Positions 23,292 to 58,729 of a stretch of DNA of 64,000 bases are shown one piece after another; the stretch's first letter is position 1, and every line of letters begins with the position of its first letter. A program made the position numbers and the translations under genes. The DNA comes from Saprospiraceae bacterium (lineage in GTDB: Bacteria; Bacteroidota; Bacteroidia; Chitinophagales; Saprospiraceae): positions 291,317 through 355,316 of the forward strand of contig JAHDHL010000002.1 in assembly GCA_020631355.1 (NCBI GenBank). Reading direction: 5' to 3'. Below the pieces are notes generated by a model. The model did no database searches, had not been told where the DNA came from, and worked only from the letters and a program-made list of their open reading frames with translations.

Positions 23292-23909
23292 ATGAAAACA
23301 ACATTATTTTCAAGTTTGAGTATTCTCACTCTCCTATTCTTTTCCTTTTTACCAGTTGGACAGCAAAATCAATATCAGATTTTCCAGTCTCAGTCTGATA
23401 CAGCCATTATGAAAATAAATGAGCAAGGAAATGTAACCGAATACTTTGTTATTCAAAACTTAACATTTACTCCTAAAGAGGAACAAATTGAAAATGTAAT
23501 ATTCCAACGTAAAAAGAATACCATCCAAATTAGTCTTAAGAATGGGAAGAATATTGAACTAATTCTTGATACTGAAACAAACACACAAAAATCATTGAAT
23601 TCAAATCAATACTTAGTGGGTGGTTTTTCCTTTTTCCAAACTCAAAAAAGTGGAGGAATTCCTTACAAGGAAGCTATCCAATTTGTATCCAATCAATCTC
23701 CTAGTAAAGCTAGAGGATGTATGGGGGATTGTTTAGCAGGAGGATGTGGATCAACATCTTGTTCCAGAACAGTATGGGAGGCCTCCTGTGAAGTTAGCTG
23801 TGGCAAAGGATTCACAGCTTGCTGTGGAGACTTGATTTCAGCAGGTTGTAAATGCAAACCTACACCTCGTTGTTGCAATCCATCCGATACGGCTCCAATT
23901 AGTGATTAA
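23292..23909 (+). CDS. Secreted protein with a novel Cys-rich C-terminal domain (paralog of 57933-58586)
   Basis: 205 aa. Signal peptide. C-terminal 65 aa holds 14 Cys: GCMGDCLAGGCGSTSCSRTVWEASCEVSCGKGFTACCGDLISAGCKCKPTPRCC. It shares the C-x-VSCG-x-GF-x-x-CCG ... C-x-C-x-P pattern and N-domain similarity with the 57933 gene. Confidence 0.55.
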   Translation: MKTTLFSSLSILTLLFFSFLPVGQQNQYQIFQSQSDTAIMKINEQGNVTEYFVIQNLTFTPKEEQIENVIFQRKKNTIQISLKNGKNIELILDTETNTQKSLNSNQYLVGGFSFFQTQKSGGIPYKEAIQFVSNQSPSKARGCMGDCLAGGCGSTSCSRTVWEASCEVSCGKGFTACCGDLISAGCKCKPTPRCCNPSDTAPISD

Positions 23910-23958: not shown

Positions 23959-23996
23959 AAAAAATCCCTAAATCAAACTTGATTTAGGGATTTTCT
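23959..23996. terminator. Bidirectional terminator between convergent genes
   Basis: 16-bp perfect inverted repeat aaaatccctaaatcaa-ac-ttgatttagggatttt with A-run and T-run flanks. Confidence 0.55.
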
Positions 23997-24024: not shown

Positions 24025-24729
24025 TTACATATCCAATGTATAGTGTTGTGTCAAGTACCAAATGACCATTCCCACCCAAATCAGAATGTATAGCAATGCG
24101 AAAAATTGGTAGGGTTTACTCACTACGGACCGGGTCGTCCTTGCTGCCCGATGTACACGGGCCATCATTGTTTTCACACTACTGTTCGTAATTTCTTCAT
24201 ACGAGATCTCCTTTGCATTCTCCTTGGAAGCCTGATCGATGAACAAGCGTATCGTCTTGGATAATCTTTTCTTCATTGGGACAAAACGAAGAATGTCAGA
24301 AAGTCTTGGAAAAATTACTTCCTGCATGACTTTCCTTGCAAATTGAAAACGACCCAATTCCTTATTTCCCTCATCGTGATAGACTTCATACATATCATCA
24401 ATCGGGGCCAATACTCCTCCAATCAATTCTGCCACAGCATCAATCACAATGGAGGACAAGTACTTGACTGCGGCAAAAAAACCAAGGAACAAGAAAATAA
24501 AGCCTGATATCACCTGTATAACTAACATATACACCCATGGTAATCCTACGAGCCAACTGATGGTTATTGTGGTCCCGAGATACAACCAAGCTACTATCCC
24601 TGCCTTGATAAATTGTAAGGGCGCTGATTTGGCTATGGTCCAAAGGGCAAAGGCCGCCGATATGGGATTATTCCCATTGGCATCCTCATAACTTTCCACA
24701 AATGTTTTGATATCCTGTGCTTCGGGCAT
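24025..24729 (-). CDS. Integral membrane protein, family of unknown function (paralog A)
   Basis: 234 aa with 3-4 TM helices. About 40% identical over its full length to the 26948-27655 product (MPEAQDIKTFVESYEDANGNNPIS... versus MTTAQNIKNFIEYYQDNNGQNPIS...). Confidence 0.5.
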   Translation of the reverse strand: MPEAQDIKTFVESYEDANGNNPISAAFALWTIAKSAPLQFIKAGIVAWLYLGTTITISWLVGLPWVYMLVIQVISGFIFLFLGFFAAVKYLSSIVIDAVAELIGGVLAPIDDMYEVYHDEGNKELGRFQFARKVMQEVIFPRLSDILRFVPMKKRLSKTIRLFIDQASKENAKEISYEEITNSSVKTMMARVHRAARTTRSVVSKPYQFFALLYILIWVGMVIWYLTQHYTLDM

Positions 24730-53160: not shown

Positions 53161-55233
53161 TCACACCTTCGCCTTATCATTCACTTTTTTAATTATTTGT
53201 AACAATTTCATTCTCAATTTATCTTCTCTAATCGTAACCAAATCTAAGGGTTTTCTAGTAAAAATTCGATCTTCCTCATTCATTTTGTATTCATAAGACA
53301 AGTGATTTAATTCCTGTTCATAGTCGCCTAAAACCTTTAGAATTTCTATCGCTTTTAATGGATGGTTTATTGAAACCTGATACTCAGCATTCTGCAAAGT
53401 ATAATCTATAGTATCAGCAGCATCTCTATCTAATTCATTAAAACCCATCATACCCAAATCAATTCCTGATAATTGATAAATTCCTACAAGAAACATTCTA
53501 ACAATATTGGTTAATCCTCCGTACCATTCCACACCATTAATCAAACCTGACATATTTTTAAATTTCAACGAATTATAATTAGTTGATAATAAATTAAACC
53601 AGTCGAATTTATTGAAGTATTCTGTTTGAATAGAAAGAAATACTTCGCCATTCATAATGGGGTACTCACATTTTTCTAAATCCTTAAACTCAGAGTCAAT
53701 CAAAACACTAAAATGATTCCCATAAGTATAACTTTTCTCTAATCTTCCTATAAGATATTTCAAGGCATTATATATCTTATTCTTCTCTATTTCTGCGTCT
53801 TCTATTTCTTCAATGCCTAAATAGGACTTGTATTCATTGCTTCTTTCTCTATCCGCCAACATTTGGAGAAAATACCACTCATCACCATCTACGGAATGGG
53901 TTACTAAATAATAGTCTATTAAAGAAATAGCGTGTGGAATTGCTTTAGCATTCACAAATTCAAGAGCTAAATCTAAATAATCAACCCTATTGACATTCTT
54001 ATTATTAAGGATTTGCAAAATACATATCAAAGCATTTATTATTTTACAATACTCCTTATAAAAATAAACAAAGGTAACCAACATCGTATCATAGGCTAGT
54101 TCCAAAAGCTTAGCCCTAAATGAAAACAAGGTCAGTTCAATCCTGACAAGAGGTACATCCTTGTACTTCTCCCTTAATTGCTTAACAGCATCAACAATAG
54201 AGTTCTTCGAAATTAATTCAAGGACATGAACAAAATCATTATCGTCCTGAGGGGAATAATTTTGGATATCCTTTACTACATCATTTAAATGAAAATTCAC
54301 ATCAGCGACTCCCTCTTTAATTCTCACCCCCCATTCTTCCTCTATTTTATCACATAGTATCATCTTATTTTTCAAGCCACACAGTAAAAACTCATATCCC
54401 TTTGGTAGCTTCTCATATGCTAAACAATACTTCTGCAAATCTTCAGATGCAGCATCAAAATAGCCTTTCTTCGCTAATGATAATACATTCTTAAATGGGT
54501 CTACTTTTGGATACAACACAAATCTTCCCAATTCGTCTCCTCTTACATCCAATGGTCTGAATATAGGATTTTGACGCTCTTTCGTTTCTAATCGAACTGC
54601 ATCAGATACACTATTTGCTAGCTTACTAACAGACAATGGACCATTATTCTTTTCTAATTCTGCTAATAGATTCTTAGCAAATGGACTATTTTCTTCCTCA
54701 TTTCCATCTAATGCATACTCCCTACTATGGCAAGATGAAAACCCATTACGTGATGGCCTTTTCTCATCTTTTCGATTGGATATTGAACTCTTAGTTTTCA
54801 AGAAAATACTTCCAGAAAAACAAGCATCCACTACTAGTAACATATGATGACAACCTACTGATTTTAACCTATCAGTTAAGTCACTAGAAGATACGAAACC
54901 AGAATCAACACCTTTCTTTGCTCCGAAAGGAAGCCAATAACCTATGTCATCTATGTTTTCGCCGTGACCAGAGAAATAAATAATTAGATTATCATCCTTT
55001 GTAACTTGACCTCTCAAACTCCTTATCGCAGAAAGTATGTTATCCCTAGTAGCATTCTCGTTAAATAATGGAGAACCACCAATTAGTTCAAATTGATATT
55101 TATTTACTAGTATCGATGAAATTTTCTTGGCATCGTATACACAATTATCTAGTTCCGTAAGGCCATTTTTGTATTTATCTATCGCAATGAACAAGCAATA
55201 ATTCTTTCCTTTCAAAATTTCATTACTTGGCAT
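53161..55233 (-). CDS. Caspase-like (peptidase C14) protein with a 450-aa C-terminal domain of unknown function
   Basis: YCLFIAIDKY...DNLIIYFSGHG (catalytic His) ...HMLLVVDACFSG (catalytic Cys) give the canonical caspase His-Cys dyad. The remainder is helical with no known motif. AT-rich gene. Confidence 0.7.
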   Translation of the reverse strand: MPSNEILKGKNYCLFIAIDKYKNGLTELDNCVYDAKKISSILVNKYQFELIGGSPLFNENATRDNILSAIRSLRGQVTKDDNLIIYFSGHGENIDDIGYWLPFGAKKGVDSGFVSSSDLTDRLKSVGCHHMLLVVDACFSGSIFLKTKSSISNRKDEKRPSRNGFSSCHSREYALDGNEEENSPFAKNLLAELEKNNGPLSVSKLANSVSDAVRLETKERQNPIFRPLDVRGDELGRFVLYPKVDPFKNVLSLAKKGYFDAASEDLQKYCLAYEKLPKGYEFLLCGLKNKMILCDKIEEEWGVRIKEGVADVNFHLNDVVKDIQNYSPQDDNDFVHVLELISKNSIVDAVKQLREKYKDVPLVRIELTLFSFRAKLLELAYDTMLVTFVYFYKEYCKIINALICILQILNNKNVNRVDYLDLALEFVNAKAIPHAISLIDYYLVTHSVDGDEWYFLQMLADRERSNEYKSYLGIEEIEDAEIEKNKIYNALKYLIGRLEKSYTYGNHFSVLIDSEFKDLEKCEYPIMNGEVFLSIQTEYFNKFDWFNLLSTNYNSLKFKNMSGLINGVEWYGGLTNIVRMFLVGIYQLSGIDLGMMGFNELDRDAADTIDYTLQNAEYQVSINHPLKAIEILKVLGDYEQELNHLSYEYKMNEEDRIFTRKPLDLVTIREDKLRMKLLQIIKKVNDKAKV

Positions 55234-55765
55234 TCTGTTTTTTTCTTTTCTTATCCATTTCGTACATCAATTCCCAAAAGTCGTTCAGATATAATGTATC
55301 TGTATAAACTTTCGAAGAATCGACACTCAATACTGACTGACGAACGATGAAATGCTCTTTATTCGCAGGCTCTTTGGGAACTGGTTGATTTATTTCTTCT
55401 TTTTTATTCAAGGACTGATATCCAAAAATAGCCGTAAATATTAACGCAAGAATGAACAGTCCAAATTGGCACGAATAATAAAGTCTAACACTACCTCCAT
55501 TAATAGAATATTCGCCACTTTGCCCATCATCCTTAATTGGCTGTAGAGTTCCTGTCAGTGACATTAGGGTAAATATCCCAAACAATATGGAAAAAATGAA
55601 CGCACCCCATGCTAATCCTAATAACCAGATACTATCCTCGTTACCTCCCCCTACGATATTCTTAGAAAAAGCAATGGTAACTGTAATAATAGCCGACGAA
55701 ATCGATATAAGTTGCTTGGCAGTATCAGCAGCAAAATCAAATGCTTTTTTTTCATTTTCTTTCAT
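55223..55765 (-). CDS. Small multi-TM membrane protein co-transcribed with the caspase-like gene
   Basis: 180 aa with 3 TM helices and a cytoplasmic tail. The last 11 bp overlap the caspase-like gene start. Confidence 0.5.
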   Translation of the reverse strand: MKENEKKAFDFAADTAKQLISISSAIITVTIAFSKNIVGGGNEDSIWLLGLAWGAFIFSILFGIFTLMSLTGTLQPIKDDGQSGEYSINGGSVRLYYSCQFGLFILALIFTAIFGYQSLNKKEEINQPVPKEPANKEHFIVRQSVLSVDSSKVYTDTLYLNDFWELMYEMDKKRKKQNAK

Positions 55766-57222: not shown

Positions 57223-57837
57223 TCAGGATTTCCTTACAGGTATCTGTCGAATCAGCTCATCATATTTATTCAAGACATTGAGATAATCCAAATGTATATC
57301 AGTCATTTTATTATCCGCATCCAATCTGGTGGATTCACCATTCACAACCTTAATCATTTTGGATAAATCATTCTGACCATTGCGTATTCTCTCTTTTGTC
57401 AGAATGACTTGTTGGTTGATTGTATTTTCCATGATTTCTTTCAACCAATCATCCACAATACCCGTAATCTTAAATTGACCGAAATATGTTGCGATAATGA
57501 TTTGGGGCAAAATGGATAGGAAATATTTATATTCTTCTTCAATACGAAATATTTCTTCTACTTCGGTTATTTTTAATTTAGGGATAATGACATGAGTCTC
57601 CCATTCCCACCTTTTGAGAAAACGGTCTAGGAAATCAAGCAGGAATAACTTTTCTCCTTTTTTCTTATAATATTCTTCCAGTTGGTCTAAGACATCCCAA
57701 CCCTCATCATTCCCGAATGGTGCGAATTCTTCCAGTATACTGATAAAAAAGTCATCAGGTAATAATTGATTGAAATGTGGATGACAATACTCCCTTTCCA
57801 AATCAAAATCATCGTTGCAAAAGTATAGTTTCGACAT
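57223..57837 (-). CDS. Hypothetical cytoplasmic protein (downstream partner of the Cys-rich secreted protein)
   Basis: 204 aa, acidic, no signal peptide. 95 bp downstream of the 57933 gene on the same strand. Confidence 0.45.
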   Translation of the reverse strand: MSKLYFCNDDFDLEREYCHPHFNQLLPDDFFISILEEFAPFGNDEGWDVLDQLEEYYKKKGEKLFLLDFLDRFLKRWEWETHVIIPKLKITEVEEIFRIEEEYKYFLSILPQIIIATYFGQFKITGIVDDWLKEIMENTINQQVILTKERIRNGQNDLSKMIKVVNGESTRLDADNKMTDIHLDYLNVLNKYDELIRQIPVRKS

Positions 57838-57932: not shown

Positions 57933-58586
57933 CTATTCAGGAATACATTCACAAATCTTTGCATTAGGCTTTCCCGTTGTAGGATTATAACTACCACAAC
58001 ATGAATAGAAACCCTCCCCACAGCTGACAGAACACTTAACTGATATACTCGCTGATGCGACTCCTACACCACCATCAATACTACAACCCTTGGAACCCTC
58101 TCCTCCTGCAAAACAGATAAGTGTTTCGGTGGTATCATTTCCTCTTGTTTCATCATTATCAAATCCATCAAAAGGTAAACCAGTAGTTTTCGATAAGGCT
58201 TCATAAACACTACCTGTTGACTGTATTTCTAACTTGAACTTATCAGTGGAAACCCTTTCCTCTAGGGATATCTTAGCAAGGCCATAACCTGAATACTTCA
58301 CCTGTTCTTTTGCAACACCTGTTACACCAAAGGTTACGTTCTTTTCTCCATTCGATATGGAAAGAAAATCTTCAGTATAATGTACCTTATAATCAGGATA
58401 ACTATCATCCAATCGGCTAGAATTACCTTGCAGTACAAAGAATTCATTTGTCATTCCATCCTCATTTAATAGGATAGCCAATTCATCATTTTGGGATGAT
58501 AATACTTCGATTGTATTTTTAGTGGATGTTGTTGCTTTAGAATTGGTTTGGGAACAATTCAGAGAAACCAGAATCACACTAGACAC
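57933..58586 (-). CDS. Secreted protein with the novel Cys-rich C-terminal domain (paralog of 23292-23909); start codon uncertain
   Basis: C-terminus CSIDGGVGVASASISVKCSVSCGEGFYSCCGSYNPTTGKPNAKICECIPE. N-domain similarity AILLNEDGMTNEFFVLQGN versus IMKINEQGNVTEYFVIQN. The frame is open upstream (KFNIIKFISILFIVSSVILVSLNC, a signal or lipoprotein peptide) but has no in-frame ATG; a GTG or a rarer codon serves as start. Confidence 0.5.
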   Translation of the reverse strand: MSSVILVSLNCSQTNSKATTSTKNTIEVLSSQNDELAILLNEDGMTNEFFVLQGNSSRLDDSYPDYKVHYTEDFLSISNGEKNVTFGVTGVAKEQVKYSGYGLAKISLEERVSTDKFKLEIQSTGSVYEALSKTTGLPFDGFDNDETRGNDTTETLICFAGGEGSKGCSIDGGVGVASASISVKCSVSCGEGFYSCCGSYNPTTGKPNAKICECIPE

Positions 58587-58729
58587 GATAAATAAGATGC
58601 TAATGAATTTGATAATGTTGAATTTTTGATGCTCCTTTTATTTCAGGAACTGGTTATAAATGATTTTCAAACGCTATCTTAAAAGAGTCCACCTTAAAAA
58701 AATGTGACTCCTCTTTGTGAGATTTATAA

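Follow-up and report, generated by a model that had tools for sequence, protein, structure and literature searches.

Genes A and B and their immediate surroundings

Within the window, by which is meant the whole 64,000-nucleotide stretch of Saprospiraceae DNA analysed, two genes, designated A and B, were each found to code for a protein in which a beta-rich N-terminal domain (N-domain) precedes a C-terminal cysteine-rich module. The relevant features are as follows.

23292..23909, + strand: gene A (ORF list), an exported protein of 205 aa in which a signal peptide is followed by two domains, the beta-rich N-domain and the 12-Cys module
23292..23360, + strand: putative signal peptide of A, residues 1-23 MKTTLFSSLSILTLLFFSFLPVG (inspection and AF2 helix)
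23364..23696, + strand: N-domain of A, approximately residues 25-135, with eight beta strands and one helix
23715..23879, + strand: 12-Cys module of A, spanning residues 142-196 and containing five short strands (domain HMM and AF2)
23961..23994, no strand assigned: terminator hairpin separating A from the convergent ORF at 24025-24729 (RNA fold)
57933..58616, - strand: gene B, 227 aa from ATT 58616 or 217 aa from GTG 58586, with an 8-Cys module (ORF list, HMM and the homolog P0003)
57936..58121, - strand: 8-Cys module of B, covering the final 62 residues (domain HMM)
58122..58553, - strand: N-domain of B, from after the lipobox Cys, which is residue 21 when counted from ATT 58616 (N-domain HMM)

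The coordinates given for gene A in the initial annotation agreed with the ORF listing of the window, and its product corresponds exactly to a 205-aa entry in an NCBI-sourced protein collection. Because a lipobox Cys is absent, the signal of A was assigned by inspection to type I, and a helix spans residues 4-17 in the AF2 model. That model, built on the family alignment, is a confident one (pLDDT 88, pTM 0.81), with pLDDT values of 80-94 in the Cys module. The N-domain is common to other long-form family members (vide infra), and the 12 Cys residues all lie between residues 143 and 195 in the pattern C-x3-C-x2-GG-C-G-x3-C ... C-E-V-S-C-x2-G-F-T-A-C-C ... C-K-C ... C-C, the 12-Cys arrangement being present in each of the 11 relatives of the A subtype that were aligned (11/11). 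Immediately downstream A adjoins the convergent ORF, which codes for a membrane protein of 234 aa, and the intervening terminator, whose stem spans 15 bp between an A-run and a U-run, folds at -20.8 kcal/mol (z = -8.4; 0/200 shuffles as good). PGA_cap and M23 peptidase genes lie upstream on the same strand, and further downstream are genes for a TPMT-like methyltransferase and a transglutaminase-like protein (Pfam).

Gene B was initially annotated as an ORF at 57933-58586, and such an ORF, starting from GTG, is indeed present. However, counting from GTG 58586 leaves the product with a hydrophobic segment shorter than a signal peptide requires. Read in frame, the stretch ahead of that codon is IIKFISILFIVSSVILVSLNC, from which ATG, GTG and TTG are all absent, and the whole frame back to the stop at 58640, KEHQKFNIIKFISILFIVSSVILVSLNC, is equally devoid of all three. 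The closest homolog of B, P0003, begins MIKYTIVSILTLTLGLC, its MIKY aligning with the IIKF of B, while the family HMM alignment to B also extends upstream of GTG, and the start region is identical in three independent assemblies. Taken together, these data point to ATT 58616 as the likely start, in which case B would probably be a lipoprotein-like precursor of 227 aa. The copy of B in a public protein collection has only 173 aa, a length that fits an internal Met start. The signal peptide initially claimed for both proteins was consequently found as such in A and, in B, only with a start upstream of GTG 58586; that both proteins are secreted was nonetheless borne out, in so far as both look exported.

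The product of B contains 8 Cys within its last 60 residues, in the pattern C-F-A-GG-E-G-x3-C-S ... C-S-V-S-C-G-E-G-F-Y-S-C-C ... C-E-C-I-P, plus one Cys in the lipobox-like SLNC, so that the 10-14 Cys initially attributed to the ends of both proteins apply to A (12) but not to B (8). When the domain was modelled by itself with AF2, confidence was no more than moderate (pLDDT 66). Downstream of B lie a 204-aa ORF (57223-57837), encoded on B's own strand, and a nucleoside hydrolase gene, and upstream is a gene for a GNAT protein. The different neighbours initially described for the two genes, a convergent membrane ORF for A and a same-strand 204-aa ORF for B, were found as described. The latter ORF (- strand) codes for an acidic, cytoplasmic protein and begins 95 nt 3' of B, no terminator being obvious in the gap; the protein is a singleton with sub-threshold family matches only, and does not occur beside other family members among the matches listed.

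Homology, family membership and architecture

The initial proposal that A and B are similar was confirmed by BLASTP (E 2e-8; 23% identity over 184 aa, both domains being covered), and the core motif quoted as shared was found in each of them (CEVSCGKGFTACCG in A and CSVSCGEGFYSCCG in B, with CKCKP in A corresponding to CECIP in B). Test HMMs built from other family members (approximately 196 for the module HMM), with A and B excluded, independently recovered both domains: the module HMM matched A at E 2.3e-10 and B at E 9.5e-13, and the N-domain HMM matched A at E 6.3e-11 and B at E 8.9e-17. None of the other stop-to-stop ORFs in the window gave anything better than E 0.04 with these HMMs, and searches of all six frames by tblastn and HMM detected no third copy in the window. 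Both A and B carry the pattern captured by the module HMM (C-x2-GG-x-G-x3-C ... C-x-V-x-C-x2-G-[YF]-[YF]-[AS]-C-C ... C-x-C), and both have the homologous beta-rich N-domain behind an export signal that characterises the long forms of the family.

By BLASTP, the best relatives of A are P0005, P0116 and P0004 (32-36% identity, E 1e-27 to 1e-30), and that of B is P0003 (E 7e-29, full length). The subtype to which A belongs has 12 Cys in the arrangement C-x3-C-x2-GG-C-G ... C-x-C-x3-5-C-C, and that of B has 8 Cys with a long insert ahead of C-x-C. As each is far nearer to proteins of other organisms than to its counterpart in the window, A and B are old paralogs of different subfamilies, and their initial description as diversifying paralogs was not upheld. 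A recent duplication was also considered as the origin of the pair and rejected on the same figures, the A-B match (E 2e-8) comparing with values of <=1e-27 for matches to other organisms' proteins.

When 1.84 billion cluster representatives were scanned in full by HMMER, the A+B profile recovered 111 of them at E<=1e-3. Word-indexed protein searches conducted with A and with B returned only A and B themselves, and a 110-sequence alignment returned 10 matches. When a degenerate DNA pattern for C-x-V-x-C-x2-G-[YF]-[YF]-[AS]-C-C was searched in species-representative genomes, at least 120 genome loci were found to carry the motif. Among the matches listed, approximately 90 were from Bacteroidota, 17 from Acidobacteriota, and a few from Gemmatimonadota, Planctomycetota and Myxococcota, the listed Bacteroidota loci being drawn from Bacteroidales, Flavobacteriales, Chitinophagales and Saprospiraceae, Cytophagales and Balneolales. 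Cultured carriers include Flavobacterium cerinum, F. rivuli, Cyclobacterium xiamenense, Aquimarina, Marinoscillum furvescens, Psychroflexus halocasei, Bacteroides hominis and Corallococcus carmarthensis. Judged by these sequence matches, A and B are no isolated pair but members of a large multi-phylum family found mainly in Bacteroidota.

Further matches in Aliivibrio, Woesearchaeota and one cyanobacterium were set aside, as the remainder of the module was missing from them and they look like chance occurrences. Searches of plasmids yielded no family member, and the viral collection IMG/VR only two matches. One of these two is a contig of C. carmarthensis that is listed as viral in IMG/VR (L126, also L074) and bears a myxobacterial long-form lipoprotein at 2178-2978.

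The consensus of the module across the family is C-x-[SN]-G-G-x-G-[SA]-x2-C-S-x(4-33)-C-S-V-[ST]-C-x2-G-[YF]-[YF]-[AS]-C-C-x(2-12)-C-x-C, with Cys, GG-x-G and G-Y-Y-A-C-C as the conserved scaffold and a variable loop of 4-33 residues separating the second Cys from the third. Long forms (190-290 aa) are built like A and B, the Cys module being preceded by an export signal and an N-domain, and short forms (80-115 aa) consist of a hydrophobic N-terminus, often with an NVEALA-like motif, followed by the Cys module. A hydrophobic N-terminus was recorded in 114 of the 122 long forms, 61 of these 114 having a lipobox-like Cys, and within the long forms the C-terminal module is conserved and the N-domain more divergent. 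Six members are circular permutants in which HMM positions 21-51 precede positions 2-17 (L031, L086, L087, L047, L123 and L127), the first three of which carry double-glycine-type (GG) leaders. The C-x-C pair is shifted to the N-terminal side in a further 23 domains, 20 of which have no tail Cys. In three proteins (P0040, P0096 and L085) the module is located upstream of a T9SS CTD; the corresponding Por_Secre_tail sorting domain was absent from A and B in the Pfam scan.

Catalogued domains, related systems and probable cysteine pairing

The reference sets deployed were a copy of Pfam with models up to 2025, NCBIfam as of 2026 and the PDB as of 2026. Neither A nor B matched any entry in Pfam at E<=1 or in NCBIfam, the A+B profile had no match among PDB sequences, and A, B and their neighbours gave no match in PADLOC and PHROGs. 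Fold searches of the PDB returned generic beta-meander matches only, chiefly OspA, with non-significant matches to EGF and TNFR. When 110 members were compared with Pfam and NCBIfam, no model covered the Cys module; the Pfam matches were 13 to PF14055 (NVEALA, N-terminal part only), 2 to Por_Secre_tail and 1 to CBM_14, and in NCBIfam there was one weak match to the Cys-rich CGP-CTERM family. Searches of the literature on NVEALA, DUF5128, PF17170 and the sequence motifs of the module found nothing relevant. These comparisons support a module that is unnamed in Pfam and NCBIfam and unmatched in the PDB. The initial statement that the domain is not a recognisable one accordingly stands, these searches having linked it to neither EGF, granulin nor any established bacteriocin family.

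In general character the module is akin to EGF-like domains, TNFR cysteine-rich domains, knottins and granulin, all being of approximately 50 aa with short beta hairpins, which in the module too would be pinned by 3-6 disulfides, and Gly and aromatic residues likewise take the place of a hydrophobic core. Identity with EGF, granulin or knottin was rejected, a significant sequence or fold match being absent, and so was membership of an inhibitor family, the module having no similarity to any in Pfam or the PDB.

The nearest catalogued relatives are the NVEALA proteins. The 13 of 110 family representatives that match PF14055 N-terminally carry the same Cys module C-terminally, so that for some PF14055 proteins at least the module represents the payload at the C-terminus. 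By way of contrast, A and B gave no PF14055 match at E<=1, the motif was present in 0/122 long forms, and A and B carry a beta-rich N-domain of 110-130 aa where NVEALA proteins have the NVEALA region. A and B are thus best described as a carrier-fused variant in a large, exported and probably disulfide-rich family that overlaps the catalogued NVEALA proteins.

A further point of comparison is offered by the bacteroidetocins (class IIf), whose mature peptides of 42 aa contain 4 Cys, follow a GG leader of 15 aa and are coded for at a locus that comprises a 5-TM protein, the peptide, a thiol oxidoreductase and an ABC transporter with a C39 peptidase; the locus-encoded thiol oxidoreductase has been proposed to form the disulfides of the peptide, and the peptides kill Bacteroidales through BamA (PMC6671954). 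Like the module, these are exported, Cys-containing peptides of Bacteroidota. Compared by described features, however, they have 4 Cys as against 8-12 in the module, and a different motif. At 205 and 217-227 aa, and with Sec-type N-termini, A and B are also unlike them in size and leader, and the four-gene locus is absent, there being no exporter, oxidoreductase or 5-TM gene near A or B and the Pfam assignments of their neighbours bearing no relation to it. The loci of the GG-leader permutants L031, L086 and L087, on the other hand, follow the same locus logic as the bacteroidetocins (PMC6671954). A weak similarity was also recorded between the leader of L031 and TIGR04149, the GG-leader peptides of Bacteroidota (E 0.009; 15.9 bits as against a cutoff of 25), but no radical SAM gene lies beside the GG-leader members, and A and B have no GG leader.

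Analysis of the Cys residues in 201 distinct domains indicated an even number in 181 (90%), with 8 in 131 domains, 10 in 27, 12 in 17 and 6 in 6. Losses and gains were coordinated: in five of six cases loss of the third Cys was matched by loss of one tail Cys, the extra Cys of GG-C-G accompanies one additional tail Cys, and the combination of C-x3-C with GG-C occurred with four tail Cys in 11/11 domains. No conserved His or Asp ligands were apparent in alignments of the module. The even counts and the paired gains and losses, considered together with the export signals and the adjacent oxidoreductases, point to a module that would be cross-linked by 3-6 disulfides across the family.

Gene neighbourhoods and candidate functions

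Among the matches listed, none of the neighbours of A or B recurred beside other family members in approximately 120 loci, with the exception of two isolated housekeeping-type matches; the neighbourhood of the A subtype was based on four loci. Long forms had no conserved neighbour save for tandem paralogs, which were present at 10/75 of the matches listed. Given these two results, an immunity-gene reading of the surroundings of A and B is unsupported, and the consistent linkage to a candidate immunity gene envisaged initially did not materialise among the matches listed. The 234-aa membrane ORF and the 204-aa ORF were considered individually as immunity genes and rejected, neither being located beside any relative among the matches listed. 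A tblastn search of the 64-kb window for homologs of the propeller, CxxC, thioredoxin-like, RND, C39 ABC and HlyD partners seen elsewhere detected none.

The short forms presented a recurrent pattern. Among the matches listed, 20 of 32 lay no more than 1.5 kb from the gene of a 6-bladed beta-propeller lipoprotein, the latter belonging to PF17170 (DUF5128) or PF15869 (TolB_like) and usually located directly downstream, with ends overlapping or nearly so. Small CxxC proteins, thioredoxin-like by eye and with no Pfam match, often flank the short forms. In the tight operons (L033 4585-6468, L014 2899-4881, L109 4092-6070 and L006 4803-6519), the usual order is CxxC protein, Cys peptide and DUF5128/TolB-like propeller, a second CxxC protein following the propeller elsewhere. 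To our knowledge, this recurrent set of CxxC protein, Cys peptide and propeller in Bacteroidales is undescribed. TlpA-like thioredoxin proteins are also among the neighbours of the family. Of the permutants with a GG leader, L031 (220-6515) has its peptide gene adjoining those for a C39-like, VKOR and thioredoxin fusion, a C39 ABC exporter and an HlyD-like protein, and in L086 and L087 the peptide adjoins a DUF4369+thioredoxin protein and a DUF6625 protein. The initial suggestion of a bacteriocin-like family consequently finds some echo in relatives with a GG leader, located beside a C39 ABC exporter, an HlyD-like protein and a VKOR-thioredoxin protein, but not at A or B, where no such genes occur.

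An hhalign comparison of the long-form N-domain with residues 64-106 of the propeller protein L007_1949_3130 gave a probability of 68% (P 4.7e-5) over 43 columns, which is below the usual threshold, and a relationship may thus exist between the carrier N-domain of the long forms and the N-terminal region of these lipoproteins.

The explanation that we regard as, on balance, probable is that A and B are anciently diverged members of an exported and unnamed family, in which a carrier N-domain would be combined with a disulfide-bonded, portable mini-domain. Each protein would comprise an export signal (type I in A, lipoprotein-type in B), a beta-rich carrier N-domain of approximately 110-130 aa, and a C-terminal mini-domain of approximately 50 aa held by disulfides, four in B (8 Cys) and six in A (12 Cys). 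The mini-domain would act as an autonomous and portable payload. In other genomes it follows a Sec or NVEALA-type N-terminus as a stand-alone exported unit, passes in circularly permuted form through a C39 ABC exporter behind a double-glycine leader, or precedes a T9SS sorting domain, and genes for dedicated thiol oxidoreductases are often its neighbours. The routes used for its export there are Sec, lipoprotein, GG-leader/ABC and T9SS.

As to what such a payload might do, our tentative guess is that the module is a bacteriocin-like or other intercellular binding ligand, of which the loop would determine the specificity and the N-domain the carriage or targeting. A bacteriocin-like or signalling ligand fits the loci that combine a GG leader, an ABC exporter and an oxidoreductase, the hypervariable loop, the tandem paralogs and the patchy distribution over phyla. 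The most ambitious version, whereby the module would constitute a new and widespread class of disulfide-knotted intercellular effectors (bacteriocins or signals) in Bacteroidota, gut Bacteroidales among them, and in adjacent phyla, with four export routes, the DUF5128 propellers acting as immunity, receptor or maturation partners and A and B being carrier-fused representatives, is rather unlikely, and antibacterial activity of the module can be offered as a plausible guess only. Against a ligand or toxin in the present instance, the tblastn search of the window associated A and B with no propeller, CxxC, C39 ABC exporter or HlyD partner. Against a toxin, the long forms combine a conserved C-terminal module with a divergent N-domain, the reverse of the conservation pattern of typical polymorphic toxins.

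A non-toxic binding or structural role fits about equally well, since the module is more conserved than the N-domain, lipoprotein anchoring is frequent, immunity genes are absent and the short forms are coupled to propellers. Formulated specifically, the module would be a non-toxic binding or structural unit of the envelope, a surface or periplasmic ligand that docks on a partner protein, the partner being the 6-bladed propeller lipoprotein in short-form operons and the fused N-domain taking that role in A and B; we advance this with at least as much reserve as the intercellular ligand. The propeller lipoprotein gene within 1.5 kb of 20/32 short forms among the matches listed speaks in its favour, as do the long forms being mostly lipoproteins without export, toxin or immunity partners, and the conserved state of the module, which suits a common docking function. 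The hhalign similarity of the N-domain and propeller is consistent with the same arrangement, although it is short and below the usual confidence threshold, and the GG-leader versions with a C39 ABC exporter leave the cell and are better accommodated by a diffusible peptide. It is improbable that the module instead inhibits an extracytoplasmic enzyme, such as a protease or a lysozyme-like hydrolase, with the variable loop as the reactive element. Many small disulfide-rich domains are enzyme inhibitors, and the module, which is extracytoplasmic, would have a small, rigid scaffold of disulfides in which a single loop is hypervariable (4-33 residues); A is moreover located directly downstream of the same-strand M23 peptidase and PGA_cap genes. 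However, the module resembles no inhibitor family in Pfam or the PDB, and the M23/PGA_cap neighbourhood is not kept at the other loci listed.

Two further readings concern the Cys residues and the terminal position of the module. Coordination of a metal (Zn, Cu or an Fe-S cluster) in a metal-binding or redox domain was prompted by the CxC, CC and CxxxC spacings, which are known also from metallothioneins and zinc ribbons, and by the single weak NCBIfam match to the CGP-CTERM family, but is highly improbable: every context is an exported one, the Cys number is even in 90% of domains and changes in pairs, the neighbours are thiol-disulfide oxidoreductases and VKOR, and His and Asp ligands are not conserved. 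The least probable reading, and one that we would scarcely entertain, is a C-terminal sorting or anchoring tag comparable to the T9SS CTD or a CTERM signal, as opposed to a payload. The module does form the very end of A, of B and of the majority of long forms, but in P0040, P0096 and L085 a true T9SS CTD lies downstream of it, and elsewhere it occurs alone as a mature peptide of approximately 50 aa, and in permuted order; these upstream positions and free-peptide occurrences led to rejection of the tag, and the N-domains are moreover homologous as opposed to the diverse cargo of a sorting signal.

With the carrier-plus-payload arrangement as the preferred reading, the family comprises a compact and apparently autonomous fold that lacks a match in Pfam, NCBIfam or the PDB and yet is present in more than 100 species of several phyla, the carriers including Bacteroidales of the human gut and of animal guts. 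The C-terminal part of some NVEALA proteins thereby gains a structural identity, and NVEALA proteins become linked genetically to the large paralogous families of DUF5128/TolB-like propeller lipoproteins and to dedicated disulfide-forming enzymes. If the module were an antagonistic or signalling peptide, Bacteroidota would gain a new bacteriocin-like class, and with it a naturally occurring scaffold that is rich in disulfides and has a single hypervariable loop; the circular permutants found in nature would provide a neat model for mini-protein folding. If it were a structural module of the envelope only, the outcome would be an ordinary but useful domain definition.

Two further sets of observations relate to the window itself. 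Nine of the ten window proteins looked up were singletons at 90% identity, the tenth having one further member; window proteins occur in three runs (SRR14415273-5), and the genome, with a G+C content of 40%, represents a poorly sampled lineage. At 53161-55233 (- strand) lies a gene for a 690-aa protein that begins with a caspase-like Peptidase_C14 domain (Pfam 2.9e-24; PADLOC 'caspase' 4e-12), preceded at 55223-55765 (- strand) by a 180-aa ORF with no family match, the end of which overlaps the start of the 690-aa protein gene; this could be a defence or cell-death module.
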